Shown here: positions 1,078 to 11,703 of the stretch, in pieces
Layout: the number at the start of each line of letters is the position of its first letter
Numbering within the stretch: the stretch's first letter is position 1
DNA from: a virus
Direction: 5' to 3' (one strand)
DNA: 16,495 bases
UHGV virus genome: UHGV-0357595
Translations under genes and position numbers: made by a program
Notes under the pieces: model-generated
Told to the model about the DNA's origin: nothing
Database searches by the model: none
The model's input: the letters and a program-made list of their open reading frames with translations, nothing else

Positions 1078-1497
1078 TTACTCCGGTGGGGGATTATCTT
1101 TAAGCCTGCCTCTCAAATATTTTTCTACATACTCATCGATTTCTTTTAGCCGGACTTCAAATAGCTCAATCATTCGTTGTTGTTCTGAGCCCGGTAGCTG
1201 GTTAAACAACTCAAGAAGTTTTCGTTGGGATTCATTTAACCACAATTCAGAAGATTCCTGTTCTCCAAATAGGAGCTCAGGAGGAGATATGCCAAGTGCC
1301 TTTCCCAATACGACAGCGTCATGCACTCCAACATTTCTGCTGCCCGCCTCATAGTTACCTATACGCGATTGCGTCCATCCGCAGATTTCAGCAAGTTTTC
1401 CTTGAGATAAACCAAGCTTCTGCCTGCGCTCTTTAAGACGCATTGCAATTTTGTCATTGAGCCTACTAGCGGCAATTTTTTCGTTTTCTTTTTCCAT
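1078..1497 (-). CDS. prophage repressor, HTH XRE/cI-like, no S24 peptidase domain (RacR-like architecture)
   Basis: 139-aa ORF; helix-turn-helix signature LGLSQGKLAEICGWTQSRIGNYEAG; C-terminal part is helical with no Ser/Lys autopeptidase motif; AGGA 5 nt upstream of the ATG; divergent from a Cro-like gene. Confidence 0.8.
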   Translation of the reverse strand: MEKENEKIAASRLNDKIAMRLKERRQKLGLSQGKLAEICGWTQSRIGNYEAGSRNVGVHDAVVLGKALGISPPELLFGEQESSELWLNESQRKLLELFNQLPGSEQQRMIELFEVRLKEIDEYVEKYLRGRLKDNPPPE

Positions 1498-3127: not shown

Positions 3128-3874
3128 ATGAAAAATATTGCGACAGGAGGCGTTCTGGAGCGTATCCGCAGACTGGCCCCACCACATGTAACCGCCCCAT
3201 TCAGAACGGTTGCGGAGTGGCGCGAGTGGCAACTTGCTGAAGGCCAGAAACGTAGCGAGGAGATCAACCGCCTGAATCGTCAGTTGCGGGTGGAAAAAAT
3301 TCTGAATCGCTCAGGCATCCAGCCGTTGCACCGTAAATGCTCGTTTGCGAATTACCAGGTGCAGAACGACGGCCAGCGATACGCGTTAAGCCAGGCGAAA
3401 TCCATCGCCGATGAACTGATGACCGGGTGTACAAATTTTGCGTTCAGCGGAAAACCTGGTACCGGGAAGAATCACTTAGCGGCAGCTATCGGGAATCGCC
3501 TGCTGAAAGACGGTCAGACAGTGATTGTGGTTACCGTGGCTGATGTTATGAGCGCCCTGCACGCCAGCTATGACGACGGGCAGTCAGGCGAAAAATTTTT
3601 GCGGGAACTGTGCGAAGTGGATCTGCTGGTTCTTGATGAAATTGGCATTCAGCGCGAGACGAAAAACGAGCAGGTGGTACTGCACCAGATTATTGATCGA
3701 CGGACAGCGTCGATGCGTAGCGTGGGAATGCTGACAAACCTGAACTATGAGGCCATGAAAACATTGCTCGGCGAGCGGATTATGGATCGCATGACCATGA
3801 ACGGCGGGCGATGGGTGAATTTTAACTGGGAGAGCTGGCGTCCGAATGTCGTCCAGCCAGGAATTGCGAAGTGA
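3128..3874 (+). CDS. DnaC-like helicase loader (IstB-like AAA+ ATPase)
   Basis: 248-aa ORF; Walker [16 protein letters not shown]; Walker B-like DLLVLDEIG; follows the initiator gene. Confidence 0.85.
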
Positions 3875-5566: not shown

Positions 5567-6145
5567 ATGAGAGACATTGATGTAAGAAAGGCTGTGCATG
5601 CCAAGATTCTGAGAGATCATCATAAAGATCCTGACACCCTAATCATTGATGAGTTTACGATGAATCTAGGGGCTAGCAGAGCTGATATAGCAGTGATCAA
5701 TGGGCTTATACATGGTTATGAGTTGAAGAGCAAGAGTGATAACTTGCTCAGATTACCAGCGCAGGTGCAACATTACTCATCAGTGATGGATAAAGTAACG
5801 TTGGTTGTCTCTGATTGCCATCTTTATGATGCTTTAAGCATAGTTCCATCATGGTGGGGGATAAAGCAAGTTACGCAAGGTGCACGGCAAGGTATCCATT
5901 TAAAAACAATTCGAACTAGCAAGTTGAATCCACAAGTGGACAAACTTTCCTTAACAATGCTTCTTTGGAAAGATGAATTGCTTTCCCTATTAAGTGATGT
6001 AGGGGAGCTACAGAATTTGAAAAATAAACCTAAACGCGTCTTATGGTCAAAACTCGCCAATAGTATGGATGTTGGCGAGCTTCGTGAAGCTGTTCGAGTT
6101 AAACTTAAAGCCCGTAAAGAGTGGCGAGTTGCTCAACAACCTTAG
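5567..6145 (+). CDS. putative PD-(D/E)xK-type nuclease-like protein (192 aa); possibly sce7726-family
   Basis: ORF in the AT-rich island; motif RADIAVINGLIHGYELK (Asp followed about 12 residues later by Glu-x-Lys) resembles a PD-(D/E)xK core; weak Shine-Dalgarno; family name is a recollection, not a search result. Confidence 0.6.
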   Translation: MRDIDVRKAVHAKILRDHHKDPDTLIIDEFTMNLGASRADIAVINGLIHGYELKSKSDNLLRLPAQVQHYSSVMDKVTLVVSDCHLYDALSIVPSWWGIKQVTQGARQGIHLKTIRTSKLNPQVDKLSLTMLLWKDELLSLLSDVGELQNLKNKPKRVLWSKLANSMDVGELREAVRVKLKARKEWRVAQQP

Positions 6146-7202
6146 TTATGTGATGGTTTTGCCCAATCCTACGCCATACCTCTGGGCTACCAAATTTATA
6201 GTTACCAGAGGGATTGGCTTTGTAGGCTTGATACTCGTTTGCATAATATTCTATGTCTCTATCTCCCGCACAGAATGTAGGCCCTGAATATTCTCGATGA
6301 GCAAGAATATCCTCACTATGTTTACCATATTGTTCATAACCAAAGCGATTAGCTACTCTTCCTCGAAATACCCAAAAGTCATTATCTCCAGAGTATCTGA
6401 CGCTGGCAGATACGCTAGGGAATCGCGTCGAAAGCCTATTAAAGTCGGGGTGCTGTACTCCATAATCACTATAAATCACATTTCTGGCAAGTTCTTTTCT
6501 ATTCATTAAACTCTGCCATAAAATCCACTCGATTCGAGGTTGAGAATATAGACCAACAGAAATATCACTGAGATCTGTAGGAAATGAACCCCCAGAAAGA
6601 ATCACTTTTCTGTATTCATTGAGGTGCGCCAGATTGTTTATCAATCCCATTGCCAACGTATATAGTTCGCCGGAATTAAGTTTATCCTCGGTTAACTCAT
6701 CTCTTAAGTCAATAATTATATCAATATTTGATAAAGGAATTCCCAGATGATTAATGTAATGCGTTATTAATTGTGGGTTAACCAGATCTAACGTGGTTAA
6801 TCTCAAGCATATTTCATTCTGCATTAATTCATCAATCGCTCTTTTATAGTTAGATGGGCGAGTTGGTGAACTGACAGGAATAACTCTTATCCCCATATCT
6901 CTAACTTGATGAACCGCATTTATTATAGGGTAATGATCTTCAGGAGAAATAAAATGCTCTTCAATTAATAATCCATCAATATAAACACCTTGCATATCTG
7001 AGCAAGATTTTGAGACTTTCTTTCCGAACTCTATAAGAGTCTCGTTATAACTCTTTAAGGCAATACCTGAATCAGGGTCAATTGGCACTGGTTCAATTTC
7101 GAGTAATGGCAAAATTTTTGATTTCTTTTCAATGGATAGCTGCGATAAAGCTGATAACTCAGAACGTTTCGCTTTCAGAATAGGAATATATGAAATTGTC
7201 AT
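6105..7202 (-). CDS. hypothetical protein (365 aa), partner of the putative nuclease; possibly beta/sce7725-family
   Basis: Long minus-strand ORF in AT-rich DNA; start ATG at 7202 with AAGGT upstream; N-terminus MTISYIPILKAKRSELSAL; convergent with the 192-aa gene and overlapping it by 41 bp at the 3' ends. Confidence 0.7.
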   Translation of the reverse strand: MTISYIPILKAKRSELSALSQLSIEKKSKILPLLEIEPVPIDPDSGIALKSYNETLIEFGKKVSKSCSDMQGVYIDGLLIEEHFISPEDHYPIINAVHQVRDMGIRVIPVSSPTRPSNYKRAIDELMQNEICLRLTTLDLVNPQLITHYINHLGIPLSNIDIIIDLRDELTEDKLNSGELYTLAMGLINNLAHLNEYRKVILSGGSFPTDLSDISVGLYSQPRIEWILWQSLMNRKELARNVIYSDYGVQHPDFNRLSTRFPSVSASVRYSGDNDFWVFRGRVANRFGYEQYGKHSEDILAHREYSGPTFCAGDRDIEYYANEYQAYKANPSGNYKFGSPEVWRRIGQNHHITKVVEQLATLYGL

Positions 7203-7373: not shown

Positions 7374-7644
7374 TATCAGTCTTTCTTCCATGATGAATGC
7401 TAATGCCATTTGATTTGTTGAGGTGAAAACTGTTAAAAATCAAAACGATGTAATTGAAATGAACGTTCGGTAGCATTCACGCTTTAAATGTTTCTTTTGT
7501 GCTGATTGGATGAATTTTGGTCACTTATGATGAGAGATGTTGCAGGAAAAGAAGTTGGCATTGATCTATTGGATAGTTAGAATTGCTGCGGGTGCTTGAG
7601 GCTATCTGCCTCAGGCATGAACACCAAAAGGCAGATAGAGAAAA

Positions 7645-7711
7645 GCCCCAGTTAACATTACGCGTCCGGCAAGACGCTTAACATTAATCTGAGGCCAATT
7701 TCATGCTTTGC
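7645..7711 (-). ncRNA. candidate Sok-like antisense RNA of the hok locus
   Basis: Minus-strand promoter-like elements TTGCCT (complement of 7741-7746) and TAACCT (complement of 7718-7723), antisense to the hok leader; 3' end not resolved; placed by analogy with hok/sok loci. Confidence 0.3.
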
Positions 7712-7759
7712 ACATGTAGGTTAGCCTCTTACGTGCCGAAAGGCAAGGAGAAGCAGGCT

Positions 7760-7915
7760 ATGAAGCAGCAAAAGGCGATGTTAATCGCCCTGATCGTCAT
7801 CTGTTTAACCGTCATTGTGACGGCGCTGGTAACGAGGAAAGACCTCTGCGAGGTACGAATCCGAACCGGCCAGACGGAGGTCGCTGTCTTCACAGCTTAC
7901 GAACCTGAGGAGTAA
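7760..7915 (+). CDS. hok: Hok/Gef-family type I toxin (51 aa)
   Basis: Translation MKQQKAMLIALIVICLTVIVTALVTRKDLCEVRIRTGQTEVAVFTAYEPEE matches the Hok/Gef family (HokD/RelF-like as recalled); single transmembrane helix; an in-frame upstream ATG at 7703 would extend the frame to 70 codons. Confidence 0.85.
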   Translation: MKQQKAMLIALIVICLTVIVTALVTRKDLCEVRIRTGQTEVAVFTAYEPEE

Positions 7916-9074: not shown

Positions 9075-9364
9075 TGGTGGATTTACGTAAAGCGGCTCGG
9101 GGGCAGATGTGCACCGTCAGAATTCCTGGCTACTGCAATCACAATCCCGAAACATCTGTGCTGGCGCATTACAGGCTGGCGGGGACGTGCGGAACAGCGA
9201 CAAAACCACACGATATGCAGGCAGCGATTGCCTGTAGCTCATGCCACGATTTAATCGACGGGCGGGTAAAAACCAGCGATTACACCAAAGAAGAATTACG
9301 CCTGATGCATGCAGAAGGTGTTTTTCGCACACAAGAAATCTGGAGAAAGGAAGGTTATTTATGA
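9074..9364 (+). CDS. Cys-rich nin-region protein (YbcO / DUF1364-like)
   Basis: 96-aa ORF whose start overlaps the upstream stop (TAATG); cysteine cluster (CNHNPETS ... CGT ... CSSCHD); resembles the DLP12 YbcO family as recalled. Confidence 0.55.
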   Translation: MVDLRKAARGQMCTVRIPGYCNHNPETSVLAHYRLAGTCGTATKPHDMQAAIACSSCHDLIDGRVKTSDYTKEELRLMHAEGVFRTQEIWRKEGYL

Positions 9365-9915
9365 TTTACCCAACAAATACAGGCAAAAGCGGGGAACACC
9401 TTCGTCTCACCACGCTGGAAAGTGTCTGGATTCAGGGAAAACTGCGCATGTGGGGGCGCTGGTCGTATATTGGCGGCGGTAAGACGGGAAATATGTTTAA
9501 CCAGTTGCTGACCTCTAAAAAGCTAACAAAAACGGCAATTAATGAGGCGCTCCGGAGGATGAAAAAAGCAGGTCTGGACAAACCTGAACTTGAGGCTTTT
9601 TTGCGGGATATGATCAACGGCAAGCAAAAAAGCTGGCTGGTGCATTGTACTGATGCAGAGGCGTTATGCATTGATCGGGTGATTAGTGAAGTGCTGGCAG
9701 AACACCCAGGATTGATTTGTATCCTCCGGCAAAGATATGAAGGGCGGGGGATGAGTAAGCGCAAAATGGCTGAATTGCTAAATGATGCACACCCTGAGTG
9801 GTGTTTTCGGACGTGCTGCAGTCGGGTAGATGTATGGCTAAATCTTGCTGAATATATGCTCTATCTGCCGATGCGTGATGCATTCTCTTCCGGGTATTTA
9901 AAAACTGTCTGTTGA
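9361..9915 (+). CDS. Q-like late antiterminator (putative)
   Basis: 184-aa ORF starting at ATG 9361 (overlaps the upstream stop, ATGA); its stop is embedded in a strong promoter followed by a terminator, and the lysis and packaging genes lie downstream; call rests mainly on position. Confidence 0.5.
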   Translation: MIYPTNTGKSGEHLRLTTLESVWIQGKLRMWGRWSYIGGGKTGNMFNQLLTSKKLTKTAINEALRRMKKAGLDKPELEAFLRDMINGKQKSWLVHCTDAEALCIDRVISEVLAEHPGLICILRQRYEGRGMSKRKMAELLNDAHPEWCFRTCCSRVDVWLNLAEYMLYLPMRDAFSSGYLKTVC

Positions 9916-9941
9916 CTCAATCTGTTATCCGGGGCTATATT
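9912..9941 (+). promoter_or_regulatory. PR'-like late promoter
   Basis: -35 TTGACT (9912-9917), 18-bp spacer, -10 TATATT (9936-9941); overlaps the stop codon of the Q-like gene. Confidence 0.55.
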
Positions 9942-10003
9942 CCTCACGCGCCAGCAAAATCTGGCGTCGGGATTAGGAACCCCGGATAGAGACCGCGACA
10001 GAC

Positions 10004-10025
10004 ACACGCCGCGAGCGTGTTTTTT
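10004..10025 (+). terminator. tR'-like rho-independent terminator
   Basis: Stem ACACGC (10004-10009) / GCGTGT (10015-10020) followed by TTTTT (10021-10025); about 60-70 nt downstream of the PR'-like promoter. Confidence 0.6.
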
Positions 10026-10188
10026 ATTGTCGTATGCACGCGCACATCTGAATTATGGTGGGGCGTATGGGGGAGCTGAAAAGCTCGCCGGTTGGTTTCC
10101 CGGTAGTTCCTAACCCTGTACGTCTCACCACCCGATGATTAGGAACCTGACGGTGGTGATGGTTTAGAAACCACCAGAGGGCGTCATT

Positions 10189-10770
10189 ATGACAACTCAA
10201 ATTTCTGTTGAAACTCTCTCCCCGATCACCCATAACCAGATTCCTGTTATTACCACCGAACTTTTGGCGCAGTTGTACGGTGCTGAAGTTAAGAACATTC
10301 AAAATAACTACGCCAGAAATGCTGAGCGCTTTATTGAAGGAAAGCATTTTTTCAAAGTGGCTGGCGATGCCCTGAAAAATTTGCGGGTAGCTTTAAACTA
10401 CTCACAAAATTTGCAACCATCTTTAAGAGGGTTACAAATTTCCCCGAAAGCCCGCTCCCTCATCCTCTGGACAGAACGCGGAGCAGCCCGTCATGCCAAA
10501 ATGCTCGAAACCGATCAGGCGTGGGATGTGTTCGAAAAGCTGGAAGACTGCTATTTCAGACAAAAGGATCCGTCAGCGCCAGTTTCATGCCAGAAAAGTT
10601 ACGACACGCGAGTTCTCTGTTATCAGCGAGGCGGTGTCACTGTTTCCACAATTCAGTTGCGGGATGATGATATTGTTATTTCCCTTGAGTCATGGCTGGA
10701 ACTGGCGAGAGCCAATGGTTGGTTTGTTGTTCGCAGAGATAAACTGGTGGAAAGGTTGATGCAGCTTTAA
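10189..10770 (+). CDS. ORF6N-domain protein (antirepressor-like)
   Basis: 193-aa ORF; N-terminal region with LAQLYG ... NYARNAERFIEGKHFFKV ... LWTERGAARHAKML ... AWDVFEKLEDCYF, which matches the ORF6N domain pattern as recalled; first gene after the tR'-like terminator. Confidence 0.65.
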   Translation: MTTQISVETLSPITHNQIPVITTELLAQLYGAEVKNIQNNYARNAERFIEGKHFFKVAGDALKNLRVALNYSQNLQPSLRGLQISPKARSLILWTERGAARHAKMLETDQAWDVFEKLEDCYFRQKDPSAPVSCQKSYDTRVLCYQRGGVTVSTIQLRDDDIVISLESWLELARANGWFVVRRDKLVERLMQL

Positions 10771-10865
10771 AAAAGTTCTTGCATTTTTGCACATAAACTG
10801 CTTCAATTCCGGTACGCTTCGCAAAGCTGTATCGCGAGGCGAATCAAGCGCATGAACTTTACCAG

Positions 10866-10893
10866 AACCCGCCATTGAGCGGGTTTTGTTGTT
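10866..10893 (+). terminator. rho-independent terminator after the ORF6N gene
   Basis: Stem AACCCGC (10866-10872) / GCGGGTT (10879-10885) with loop CATTGA, followed by a T-rich tract (TTGTTGTTT). Confidence 0.55.
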
Positions 10894-11003
10894 TCTGGTA
10901 CTGGCGAACCTGATGTTTCATTTCTGGAGCGCGATTCCTGGCGGAATACCTGGAATCGAGACATTCTGGTAAAATTGTTTTCAGTACAGGATGTGGAGGT
11001 GAG

Positions 11004-11573
11004 ATGAGAGAACTACCTAAAGATTATTTTTTAGGAGTAGATGATGAGCTCGTCGATTATCTTGAAAAACAAGGGGAAGAGACGATACGAGAGATTCATC
11101 TTTCTAACAAAACCAATGTTGAGAATGGATACAAACTTCTGAACATTCAGATTGTTGGAATTGGCTCATCTTTTTTATTGCTGACACAGAAAACTAATTT
11201 CGATTTTCTCACCGCTGGAATTACCACATTTACATTACTATGGACATGGTGCGCCATTTACTTGGTATGTACTGGTTTATCTGTGAAGGTTAGGGGCCTG
11301 ATCAATGCCCCTCCTGATCATCTATATCATGAAAAATATAAGGATATGGAGCCATCGAGCTTTAAAATATTCGCTGATGCAGGATATTTAGGACCTGATA
11401 AGTTATTGCCGCTTATACGAAGGTATCGCCTTGTTGACTTGAGTGATACAGCAAGAGAGTTACTGTTGGAAAATGAGAAAATCCGCACGAGTCTCGATAA
11501 AGCAAGGATGTATACCATCCTTGCTCCGGTAGCTGCGATGTTTATCTCGGCTGTTTTTTTATATGTTCAATGA
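11004..11573 (+). CDS. AT-rich membrane protein (moron; possible superinfection-exclusion or abortive-infection protein)
   Basis: 189-aa ORF; ATG at 11004 with GGAGG (10995-10999) upstream; hydrophobic segments IVGIGSSFLLL, ITTFTLLWTWCAIYLVCTGL and C-terminal ILAPVAAMFISAVFLYV; markedly AT-rich compared with neighbouring genes. Confidence 0.6.
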   Translation: MRELPKDYFLGVDDELVDYLEKQGEETIREIHLSNKTNVENGYKLLNIQIVGIGSSFLLLTQKTNFDFLTAGITTFTLLWTWCAIYLVCTGLSVKVRGLINAPPDHLYHEKYKDMEPSSFKIFADAGYLGPDKLLPLIRRYRLVDLSDTARELLLENEKIRTSLDKARMYTILAPVAAMFISAVFLYVQ

Positions 11574-11703
11574 CTGAGTCGGCAGAATCTCCAACAAAAA
11601 CACGACGTGTAGCAAAGTCTGCAGTACTTTGTGTTGGAGTTGGTTTTGGTGCCACGGGTTGCTGAGGTTTATTTTCACCTTGTGGCTTGTTTTTTTCAGA
11701 CAT
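11542..11703 (-). CDS. hypothetical small protein (53 aa), antisense-oriented within the late region
   Basis: Minus-strand ATG at 11703 with AGGA about 6 nt upstream; Pro/Gln-rich N-terminus; overlaps the 3' end of the membrane protein gene by 32 bp. Confidence 0.3.
   Translation of the reverse strand: MSEKNKPQGENKPQQPVAPKPTPTQSTADFATRRVFVGDSADSVIEHIKKQPR

Follow-up and report, generated by a model that had tools for sequence, protein, structure and literature searches.

A probable immI-type antisense-RNA cassette upstream of an ORF6N antirepressor-family gene in an Escherichia coli lambdoid prophage

We consider it quite probable, from sequence and by analogy with characterized loci, that positions 9912-10770 of the window (the whole 16,495-nt stretch of viral DNA analysed here) form an autonomous immunity cassette like immI of phage P1 and correspond, in E. 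coli, to the isrK locus of Gifsy-1. Three Rfam families score above their gathering thresholds in the window, c4-a1b1 (9935-9988), isrK (9948-10025) and C4 (10051-10135), and the cassette is set in an integrated lambdoid (Rac-like) prophage, adjoining the Q gene. Antisense-RNA switches acting on antirepressor translation are of a kind already known, from P1 (c4 type) and from Salmonella Gifsy-1 (isrK), and the copy in the window is ordinary and of a sort very common in E. coli prophages. We compared it with 19-40 diverged relatives from E. coli, Salmonella, Serratia, Pectobacterium and Chromatium and observed all of its elements, the C4 fold and the preservation of every pairing through compensatory changes across these relatives.

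The cassette opens with a sigma-70 promoter on the plus strand (9912-9941; TTGACT, an 18-nt spacer and TATATT), the sole consensus promoter detected by a promoter scan of 9800-11100. This promoter is kept in 19 diverged modules, including those of Salmonella, Pectobacterium, Limnobaculum and Chromatium, and is collinear with the annotated P1 promoter; judged by alignment, it is homologous to Gifsy-1 PisrK and to the P1 promoter P1c4 (P51b). Downstream lies an IsrK-type short RNA (9948-10026, plus strand) consisting of hairpin 1 (9948-9967), in which five of seven pairs show compensatory changes, the a1 hairpin (9968-9984), the b1 segment and a Rho-independent terminator. The terminator (10004-10026), a hairpin and T run that was located by a terminator scan and had earlier been described as tR'-like, coincides with the 3' hairpin in Rfam's isrK model, and P1 has a T-run hairpin at the equivalent place. 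The match to Rfam isrK (RF01394) reached 69.4 bits against a gathering score of 50, and that to c4-a1b1 (RF03163) 47.8 bits against 46.7. The loop of the a1 hairpin displays a1 (9973-9980, TTAGGAAC), an upstream copy of the a' target and a perfect 8-nt complement of a'; this pairing is preserved at 100% in 19 sequences, with compensatory changes in five of the eight pairs. The b1 segment (9989-9994, GAGACC) repeats the b' target upstream in degenerate form and pairs with GGUUUC through one G-U; it occupies the position where the b1 of relatives covaries with the C4 loop, and is imperfect in the window. Separately, E. coli and Salmonella show complementarity between the promoter spacer (9926-9934) and the 3' arm of the a1 hairpin (9980-9988); in P1 these places are taken by another pair of sequences. 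This complementarity is absent in Serratia, Pectobacterium, Celerinatantimonas and Chromatium, and for that reason we set it aside as an element of the cassette.

The short RNA is followed by a c4-type antisense RNA (10051-10135, plus strand), which matches Rfam C4 (RF01695) at 67 bits against a gathering score of 45. Its 5' end is identical to that of P1 at 18 of 18 positions, and a mature form would extend over 10057-10132, both ends being placed solely by alignment to the annotated 77-nt P1 C4 RNA. The C4 architecture is present in the window, with a closing stem, two hairpins and a single-stranded junction; the fold has an energy of -42.9 kcal/mol (z-score -4.5), is 95.7% paired in 19 sequences with 23 pairs showing compensatory changes, and was matched by none of 500 shuffles. 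The recognition element b' (10093-10099, TGGTTTC) lies in the loop of hairpin 2, at the same position as P1 b', and the element a' (10106-10113, GTTCCTAA), which complements both a2 and a1, lies in the junction; their predicted probabilities of being unpaired are 0.99 and 0.97, respectively. The 3' strand and end of the closing stem is c' (10125-10132, TCACCACC), with a corresponding probability of 0.38; its partner is 10056-10063 in the C4 fold and 10152-10159 in the fold of the full leader. ARAGORN detected no tRNA-like gene in the leader; tRNA genes after Q are common in Stx phages.

The repeats of this leader figured in the original prediction, and their positions and sequences were all exact on re-reading. 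GTTCCTAA at 10106-10113 has its complement TTAGGAAC at 10139-10146, TCACCACC at 10125-10132 has its complement GGTGGTGA at 10152-10159, and GATTAGGAACC occurs twice in the window, at 9971-9981 and 10137-10147. These repeats are non-random, as 0.15% of 2000 dinucleotide shuffles of 9900-10200 held at least three perfect inverted repeats of 8 nt or longer within 60 nt (mean 0.2), and an 11-nt direct repeat arose in 0.45%. We found an additional complementary pair that had been overlooked, 10093-10099 with 10167-10173, which is the one nearest the ribosome site. The inverted repeats had been called nested; they are in fact interleaved, in the order a', c', a2, c2, and a'/a2 and c'/c2 therefore cannot form together as simple cis hairpins. 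The suggestion of a regulatory RNA structure or protein-binding site controlling the gene survives in its RNA half and fails as regards protein-binding sites. Rather than forming a nested hairpin leader, the repeats serve a separate, presumably processed RNA of the c4 type as its recognition elements and its targets, together with an upstream decoy copy: the antisense RNA is encoded inside the "leader" itself, and the decoy copy resides in the IsrK-type short RNA upstream.

The targets lie between the C4 RNA and the antirepressor start codon. The a2 segment (10139-10146, TTAGGAAC) is complementary to a' at 8 of 8 nt and is 98.5% paired in 19 sequences, with five of the eight pairs showing compensatory changes. 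The c2 segment (10152-10159, GGTGGTGA), which complements c' and mimics the 5' strand of C4, is 98% paired with c'; two of the eight pairs are compensatory (TCGCCACC/GGTGGCGA in loci L027, L040 and L105), and by eye the Chromatium pair reads CTGCCG/CGGCAG. The c'/c2 pair carries no annotation in the P1 GenBank record. The target of the C4 loop, b2 (10167-10173, GAAACCA), is complementary to b' at 7 of 7 nt and ends 3 nt before a Shine-Dalgarno sequence read as GAGGG (10177-10181), which in turn stands 7 nt before the ATG at 10189. The b2 of relatives abuts or overlaps the Shine-Dalgarno sequence or start codon (for example GTACGGAG, TCGAAACGCGAGG, and ATCACCGGAGGG in Gifsy-1), whereas that of the window adjoins the Shine-Dalgarno sequence across the 3-nt gap but does not overlap it. 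The C4 loop and b2 covary in 19 of 19 relatives. In every module a' and a2 stay complementary over at least 7 nt, and b' and b2 over 6-9 nt, despite about ten a' and about nine b' sequence types; each of the roughly ten distinct a' sequences matches its own a2, and the complementarity of non-cognate a' averages 4.1 nt.

The gene presumed to be under this control (10189-10770, plus strand) encodes a 193-aa protein of the ORF6N antirepressor family, a homologue of Gifsy-1 AnrP. A domain search bore out its earlier classification as an ORF6N-type protein (Pfam PF10543, residues 12-105, E 3.5e-20, 72.5 bits against a cut-off of 27.8), and PHROG 2379 ('anti-repressor') spans the whole protein (E 1.6e-91). 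It is 54% identical over its full length (E 1e-67) to Gifsy-1 STM2616, the ORF at the position of AnrP, which we took as AnrP. Residues 1-125 are 98-99% identical in loci L095-L104, and the 70-residue C-terminus has no Pfam match. The exact sequence is found on 284 contigs and nearly all homologues retrieved were more than 85% identical; a sequence search returned no solved structure of a relative. The presumed target of the antirepressor is the prophage repressor, a short DicA-like HTH protein encoded at 1078-1497 on the minus strand. As proposed earlier, this repressor lacks a self-cleavage domain: Pfam detects HTH domains only (HTH_3/HTH_31) and no S24 peptidase domain, and in tblastn comparisons its N-terminal half resembles cleavable cI while its C-terminal half is unrelated to S24. 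We also considered a second, SOS-controlled antirepressor and rejected it, LexA-box matches in the window being no more frequent than expected by chance.

On the model of the homologues, from which processing, repression, decoy activation and antirepressor activity are carried over, transcription would start near 9948 from the cassette's own promoter, and most transcripts would end at 10004-10026, giving an IsrK-like RNA of about 77 nt that displays the decoys a1 and b1. On transcripts that read through, the c4-type RNA (about 10057-10132) would precede the antirepressor mRNA and would be cut out, as RNase P does in P1. The a' element would then pair with a2, and the loop b' with b2 beside the Shine-Dalgarno sequence, blocking ribosome entry, so that the ORF6N antirepressor would be transcribed but not made. 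Since a1 and b1 would compete for a' and b', whether in cis within the precursor or in trans on the short RNA, antirepressor translation would be released when the short RNA becomes more abundant; the antirepressor would then inactivate the non-cleavable repressor, which we infer to be its target, and induce the prophage. The c'/c2 pair gives the 3' strand that closes the C4 stem a second possible partner, and probably decides between a processable C4 and a closed cis structure.

Published experiments on Gifsy-1 agree with much of this scheme. The anrP transcript is present there and its translation absent, IsrK supplied in trans raises AnrP translation more than 100-fold, and AnrP induces the antQ operon and the Gifsy-1 prophage (PMC4825925). 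The compensatory mutations G28A/C162U and G31A/C159U reported in that study (PMC4825925) appear to fall in the a1:a' helix when mapped onto the Gifsy-1 sequence. Constitutive STnc1160, which is the C4 region, enhanced IsrK toxicity and gave no relief (PMC4825925), a poor fit to a simple scheme in which C4 represses and IsrK titrates. Two features of the window likewise count against our preferred reading, namely the 3 nt that separate b2 from the Shine-Dalgarno sequence and the degeneracy of b1. The P1 facts used here come largely from GenBank annotation, the introduction of one paper and a review.

The Gifsy-1 authors explained activation differently: in their view IsrK opens the ribosome site of a leader ORF of 45 codons, to which anrP is coupled (PMC4825925). 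Applied to the window, the C4 region would be translated from the conserved ATG at 10055 after the IsrK-like RNA opens its ribosome site, and coupling would activate the antirepressor. Such coupling was shown experimentally for orf45/anrP (PMC4825925), both AUGs (10055 and 10067) stand at the Gifsy-1 spacing, and the 27-codon ORF of the window has an ATGA overlap with a 10-codon ORF that stops 21 nt before the antirepressor ATG. Among 19 relatives, however, the ORF corresponding to 10055 ranges from 3 to more than 45 codons, and its end shifts from 121 nt before the antirepressor start to points past it, a variation that rules out a conserved leader peptide, and the region evolves through compensatory base-pair changes, as an RNA would. 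The window ORF ends 50 nt before the antirepressor start, and the stop/start overlap of Gifsy-1 is missing; a 2025 review, repeating the original authors, describes orf45 as conserved in nucleotides and not in amino acids. We regard leader-ORF coupling in the window as fairly unlikely. It is very improbable that the leader acts purely in cis, its hairpins masking or exposing the ribosome site within one transcript and no separate antisense RNA being made. The minimum-energy fold of the 255-nt leader does contain a1-a' and c'-c2 in cis (-101 kcal/mol, z-score -4.0) and resembles the inactive 'structure A' of Gifsy-1, and the Shine-Dalgarno sequence is predicted to be partly paired with 10214-10219. 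Against this, the interleaved a'/a2 and c'/c2 do not allow joint nested hairpins, the covariation-backed C4 fold excludes the cis pairings, and both P1 C4 and Gifsy-1 STnc1160 are stable processed RNAs, P1 C4 being described as trans-acting. Masking of the Shine-Dalgarno sequence by 10214-10219 is predicted in Gifsy-1 as well, but we rejected it as an element, as the predicted partner shifts among relatives. The repeated 8-11-mers might instead be DNA operators for the ORF6N protein, the repressor or another protein, given three copies of the motif (two direct, one inverted) and an ORF6N domain that belongs to a KilA-N-like group of predicted DNA-binding domains, a name that one source gives to this protein. 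This is hardly credible when the motif varies between loci that share 85-100% identity in the ORF6N N-terminal domain, when what is conserved is complementarity and placement in the unpaired parts of a covarying RNA fold, and when b'/b2, a different sequence, covaries likewise.

The original prediction placed the ORF6N gene as the first late gene after tR', which would make 9912-9941 the late promoter pR', 10004-10026 tR', and Q the driver of read-through into the antirepressor and lysis genes. The promoter does lie immediately 3' of the Q-like antiterminator gene (9361-9915, plus strand, coordinates from the PGAP annotation of locus L001; Pfam DUF1133, E 2e-106, and a weak Phage_antitermQ match), the TGA stop of which falls inside the -35 hexamer. 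It would also make a short terminated RNA, like lambda 6S RNA, and one paper describes IsrK as transcribed from an antitermination-regulated promoter. The comparative evidence nevertheless indicates that promoter and terminator travel with the cassette and not with Q: the promoter-hairpins-terminator unit is conserved in distant genera, in the Q-less immI of P1 and in Stx-phage nin regions, in VT2-Sakai 2.3 kb upstream of Q. Phage 666R9, which is without the cassette, has a 91%-identical gene annotated as antitermination protein Q joined directly to the equivalent of window 10769-11700. At that junction we noted a candidate true late promoter/Q-utilisation block (10779-10843, plus strand), with TTGCAT at 10779-84, a 17-nt spacer, TGC-TTCAAT at 10799-10807 and a conserved initially transcribed region in which 10816-22 pairs with 10834-40. 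The promoter (10779-10807) and hairpin were assigned by eye, and the promoter scores below the threshold of the consensus scan. The 65-nt block is nearly invariant in six diverged loci and follows the ORF6N gene in about 65 loci. Beyond it, a terminator scan located a candidate tR' (10863-10898, plus strand), which would also end the read-through transcript of the cassette; a hairpin stands at this position in all aligned loci, and it is the positional analogue of the Gifsy-1 IsrJ terminator. Gifsy-1, with its unrelated Q82-type Q, has the IsrJ region in the role of this junction, and in Klebsiella, Enterobacter and E. coli phages without the cassette the IsrJ region directly follows Q. Rfam searches with an E limit of 1 found no IsrJ homology 3' of the antirepressor gene, whether in the window or in locus L003 of Salmonella. 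From these sequence comparisons the ORF6N gene is probably not the first late gene and the late promoter most likely lies downstream of it; we hold the late-gene assignment to be decidedly unlikely.

The immI-type cassette, or a close variant, is present in 973 of 5426 complete E. coli genomes (about 18%), with up to five copies per genome, and in 248 phage records, mostly of Shiga-toxin phages. Its RNAs carry no annotation in any record that we inspected, and in VT2-Sakai the C4 region is entered as a hypothetical ORF. Rfam and the papers examined treat P1 c4/ant and Gifsy-1 IsrK/orf45/AnrP separately. We tentatively propose, at somewhat less than even confidence, that the two are one family of mobile 'antirepressor switch' cassettes, in which IsrK is the a1/b1 decoy and orf45/STnc1160 the C4 RNA, three segments covary (a, b and the previously unannotated c'/c2) and not two, a and b reassort into about 19 specificity combinations, and insertion between Q and pR' has occurred repeatedly, in two unrelated Q families. 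If so, co-resident prophages could ignore or cross-control each other's induction, and the short RNAs of pR' would be those of the IsrJ type and not IsrK. Should the switch operate here as it does in P1 and Gifsy-1, it would permit prophage induction independent of repressor cleavage, a route that in Stx phages would also mean toxin production, and specificities coded in sequence could be read straight from genomes. The annotation of the window should be corrected to include two small-RNA genes in the leader and a late promoter that most likely lies 3' of the antirepressor gene.

Of the known systems, P1/P7 immI (c4-icd-ant1/ant2) shares with the window a collinear series of promoter, hairpin, a1 hairpin, b1, T-run hairpin, C4, a2, b2 with Shine-Dalgarno sequence, and start codon, as well as the C4 fold, in which the junction holds a' and the hairpin 2 loop b'; in both, the controlled gene leads to an antirepressor. 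The window differs in having no icd, no ORF of at least 40 aa occurring in 10135-10189; the start of P1 icd aligns with the ORF6N start itself, and the targets of C4 stand directly before the antirepressor gene. The window protein matches Pfam ORF6N only, whereas P1 Ant1 matches ANT (ANT/KilAC type). BLASTP detected no similarity between the two, and they are linked by profiles only, both matching PHROGs 63 and 1726. The window cassette also sits in an integrated lambdoid (Rac-like) prophage beside Q, with no C1-type operator evident.

Gifsy-1 isrK-orf45 (STnc1160)-anrP-isrJ (Hershko-Shalev et al. 2016, PMC4825925) has the same three Rfam elements in equal order after Q, the same promoter, the 54%-identical AnrP and a short-RNA unit with terminator after the antirepressor gene. 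Its 45-codon leader ORF overlaps the anrP start, in contrast to the 27 codons of the window that end 50 nt upstream; its a'/b' are ACGCCAA/CGGTGAT against GTTCCTAA/TGGTTTC; its Q is Q82-like and that of the window DUF1133/Q21-like; and the downstream short-RNA unit of the window is not homologous to IsrJ. The Ant genes of Stx phages (Phi24B, VT2-Sakai and 933W type; Fogg et al. 2011, PMC3064807) are close to the window in DNA sequence, with about 85% identity across the leader and 86-93% across the 5' two-thirds of the gene, and Phi24B Ant promotes efficient prophage induction (PMC3064807). Locus L104 has this Stx-phage layout, with tRNA genes downstream, and its leader is identical to that of the window over the part inspected. 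The Stx-phage cassette differs in lying in the nin region upstream of Q, and its Ant has a P22-Ant-like C-terminal domain in place of the 70-residue C-terminus of the window protein.

P4 immunity (CI RNA, seqA/seqC) likewise uses a processed small RNA cut from a transcript that bears targets on both sides, and in the Gifsy-1 study IsrK is likened to P4 SeqA as a structural homologue (PMC4825925); P4 CI acts by premature transcription termination and not by blocking a ribosome site (summarized in PMC4825925). No P4-specific Rfam family was found in the window. In the lambdoid phage P22, the sar antisense RNA of immI restrains the antirepressor gene ant; it is made from the strand opposite ant and runs over the start of that gene. 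The antisense RNA of the window differs in being encoded on the same strand as its target and upstream of it, and in pairing with it through short, separated segments.

The window comes from a Rac-like lambdoid prophage of E. coli. Over 9900-10800, the stretch rechecked here, it matches E. coli CS6L at 100% identity, and the PGAP annotation of CS6L lists a DUF1133 protein and an "ORF6N domain-containing protein" there as the only features, with no RNA genes. The repeat positions of the original prediction were all exact: GTTCCTAA (10106-10113) is the complement of TTAGGAAC (10139-10146), TCACCACC (10125-10132) that of GGTGGTGA (10152-10159), and GATTAGGAACC (9971-9981) recurs directly at 10137-10147, although the two inverted pairs, described as nested, interleave instead. 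Such a density of perfect repeats is rare by chance: of 2000 shuffles, 0.15% contained three or more perfect inverted repeats 8 nt or longer, and 0.45% contained a direct repeat of 11 nt.

The repeats had been read as either a regulatory RNA structure or a protein-binding site. The first option is supported, as they map onto Rfam elements scoring above the gathering score, namely c4-a1b1 (9935-9988), isrK (9948-10025) and C4 antisense RNA (10051-10135), with pairings that covary among relatives. The predicted C4 fold (-42.9 kcal/mol, z-score -4.5) has a closing stem, two hairpins and a single-stranded junction holding a' (GTTCCTAA, 97% unpaired), whose downstream target is a2 (TTAGGAAC); an upstream copy of a2, a1, is exposed in the loop of a hairpin in the IsrK-like RNA. 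The closing stem has c' (TCACCACC) as its 3' strand, and c2 (GGTGGTGA) can pair with c' in place of the 5' strand. A further complementary pair, absent from the original list, joins b' (TGGTTTC, 10093-10099, 99% unpaired), which lies in the loop of C4 hairpin 2 and corresponds to b' of phage P1, to its target b2 (GAAACCA, 10167-10173), which ends 3 nt 5' of the Shine-Dalgarno GAGGG (10177-10181).

To compare relatives, 106 loci were fetched, each encoding a relative of the ORF6N protein, and 19 diverged upstream regions from E. coli, Salmonella, Serratia, Pectobacterium, Limnobaculum, Celerinatantimonas and Chromatium were aligned. The entire unit from promoter through start codon is kept in these 19 regions, and the pairings are maintained by compensatory change. 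For the whole tested structure (C4 fold, IsrK hairpins and a'/a2), 95.7% of cells were paired with 23/52 compensatory, a level reached in 0/500 shuffles; the values were 98.5% and 5/8 for a'/a2, 100% and 5/8 for a1/a', and 98% and 2/8 for c'/c2. In every module the a'/a2 complementarity spans at least 7 nt and that of b'/b2 6-9 nt, despite differing sequences (b'/b2 being, for example, TCCGTAC/GTACGGA, GTTTCGA/TCGAAAC, TCCTTTTTC/GAAAAAGGA or CCCAAGGTA/TACCTTGGG), whereas non-cognate a' averaged 4.1 nt. In the relatives, b2 adjoins or overlaps the Shine-Dalgarno or start codon. Some 10 types of a' and about 9 of b' occur among 40 unique leaders, combined in about 19 ways. Because cognate pairing is kept while the a' and b' sequences differ, the pattern fits RNA-RNA recognition and not protein operators, which argues against the protein-binding option.

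The 3' arm of the a1 hairpin (9980-9988, CCCCGGATA) also has a complement in the promoter spacer at 9926-9934 (TATCCGGGG), and the equivalent places in P1 hold an 8-nt pair of another sequence (TTCAGGCT/AGCCTGAA; 3208-3215 and 3261-3268 of the fetched locus L002). This pairing could form only in transcripts begun upstream, and Serratia, Pectobacterium, Celerinatantimonas and Chromatium lack the complementarity. Another class of ORF6N genes, found in Pectobacterium, Desulfovibrio and certain E. coli phages (loci L004-L006, L009, L010, L012, L013, L022, L023 and L092), has a different structured RNA about 50-120 nt upstream of the start, sRNA-Xcc1 by Rfam (scanned in L004, L023 and L090), with loops that likewise could pair with the Shine-Dalgarno region; in L090, isrK, C4 and sRNA-Xcc1 follow one another in tandem (2532-2954).

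The predicted nature of both proteins was borne out. The gene at 10189-10770 matches Pfam ORF6N in a domain search (E 3.5e-20) and, over its full length, PHROG 2379 "anti-repressor"; 1078-1497 (-) encodes the repressor, a short HTH protein of DicA-like type that has no self-cleavage domain. The Shine-Dalgarno AGAGGG (10176-10181) is predicted to pair with CTCTCT (10214-10219) in antirepressor codons 9-11; the same pairing is predicted in Gifsy-1, where the first 27 residues are identical, and in other relatives the predicted partner varies. A 107-codon ORF antisense to C4 and the antirepressor start (10024-10347, -), unannotated by PGAP in the identical E. coli sequence, is probably spurious.

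We propose that the cassette promoter is constitutively active, that most transcripts would terminate as a short RNA bearing a1 and b1, and that read-through transcripts would give C4 RNA and antirepressor mRNA; sequence and covariation support this part. By analogy with P1 and Gifsy-1, a' and b' of C4 would pair with a2 and b2 beside the ribosome site and block translation, and the a1/b1 copies, in cis or as free short RNA, would compete for C4 and in excess release it. The antirepressor may then inactivate the non-cleavable repressor, although we infer both this target and the role of c'/c2, which probably decides whether the precursor folds into processable C4, because in the fold of the full leader a1 pairs in cis with a', and c' does so with c2.

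The ORF6N gene had been taken for the first late gene behind a tR'-like terminator, and one published remark places IsrK under an antitermination-regulated promoter. Several comparisons suggest that it is probably not the first late gene. The promoter (9912-9941; TTGACT, 18-nt spacer, TATATT) and terminator (10004-10026) form part of the cassette; both are conserved in P1, a phage without Q, and in distant genera. In VT2-Sakai, Q lies 2.3 kb downstream of the cassette, which is located in the nin region. The Q gene of vB_EcoS-666R9 is 91% identical to that of the window (9361-9915, +) through 9807, and its diverged 3' end is followed directly by the equivalent of 10769-11700 (98% identity). 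Similar reasoning applies to Gifsy-1, which has an unrelated Q of the phage-82 type: IsrJ's region directly follows Q in cassette-less Klebsiella, Enterobacter and E. coli phages. The cassette therefore sits between Q and the likely pR'/tR' unit, which conflicts with both the earlier view and the published remark. The 10769-11700 stretch opens with a nearly invariant 65-nt block (TTGCAT, 17-nt spacer, TGC-TTCAAT and a conserved initially transcribed hairpin), found downstream of the ORF6N gene in about 65 loci, Salmonella among them, and followed by a variable stretch and a terminator (10863-10898). The hairpin (GCTTCGC ... GCGAGGC, 10816-10840), in the initially transcribed region of the candidate late promoter, could with the -10-like TACGCT (10813-10818) be a pause or Q-loading element. 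Since the last ~36 codons of Q (9808-9915) diverge in DNA from the 666R9 gene, the mosaic junction of the cassette lies within the 3' end of Q.

Elsewhere in the window, 7590-7765 (+) matches Rfam sok (119.8 bits) and overlaps a HokD-like ORF (7703-7915), a putative hok/sok-type toxin-antitoxin. The cargo genes at 6105-7202 (-) and 5567-6145 (+) differ from the otherwise near-identical CS6L prophage; one is a Pfam 'Beta protein' matching PADLOC PD-Lambda-2_C (E 2.7e-41) and the other matches a PADLOC 'cll' model, making them a candidate anti-phage defence pair.

The observation behind the original prediction was thus real and its interpretation in need of correction: the cassette is an uncharacterised new member of a known and very common system type, found in 973 of the 5426 complete E. 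coli genomes, with as many as five copies in one genome, and also in 248 phage records. P1 immI is collinear with it (promoter P1c4, a1, b1, T-run hairpin, 77-nt C4 RNA, a2, b2 with Shine-Dalgarno, start codon), and the C4 5' ends are identical at 18/18 positions; the aligned start codon is that of icd in P1, whereas here it is that of the antirepressor itself. Gifsy-1 (LT2) likewise has the three Rfam elements after Q, then STM2616, the ORF at the published position of AnrP (54% identity to the window's protein, full length), and IsrJ downstream. In Gifsy-1 the PisrK-driven anrP transcript is not translated, IsrK in trans raises AnrP translation >100-fold, and AnrP increases antQ-operon transcripts and induces the prophage (Hershko-Shalev et al. 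2016, PMC4825925). The inhibitory helix defined there by the compensatory mutations G28A/C162U and G31A/C159U corresponds, when mapped onto the Gifsy-1 sequence, to a1:a'. Its authors took the C4 region to be a 45-codon ORF (orf45) coupled to anrP, and noted a stable processed RNA from it, STnc1160, whose constitutive expression heightened IsrK toxicity and did not relieve it (PMC4825925), a result at odds with simple titration. Taken as a whole, the family behaves as RNA and not as coding sequence, because the equivalent ORF varies from 3 to >45 codons among relatives and in the window stops after 27 codons, 50 nt upstream of the antirepressor start. The ORF from the C4 5' ATG enters that start in frame in E. 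coli ECMA0423 (L027, upstream of 3001) and passes it in another frame in Serratia (L008), showing how unstable this reading frame is. The VT2-Sakai 'hypothetical protein orf34' (L110, 4592-4765) lies within the leader-matching stretch and stops at the beginning of ant; it therefore probably spans the C4 RNA, and it is probably an annotation artefact recurring in Stx-phage records. Besides a third covarying pairing, reassorting specificities and a probable reassignment of the late promoter, the analysis offers a possible unification of the P1 and Gifsy-1 systems; a 2025 review still treats IsrK and P1 c4 as separate, and Rfam keeps isrK outside the C4 clan.
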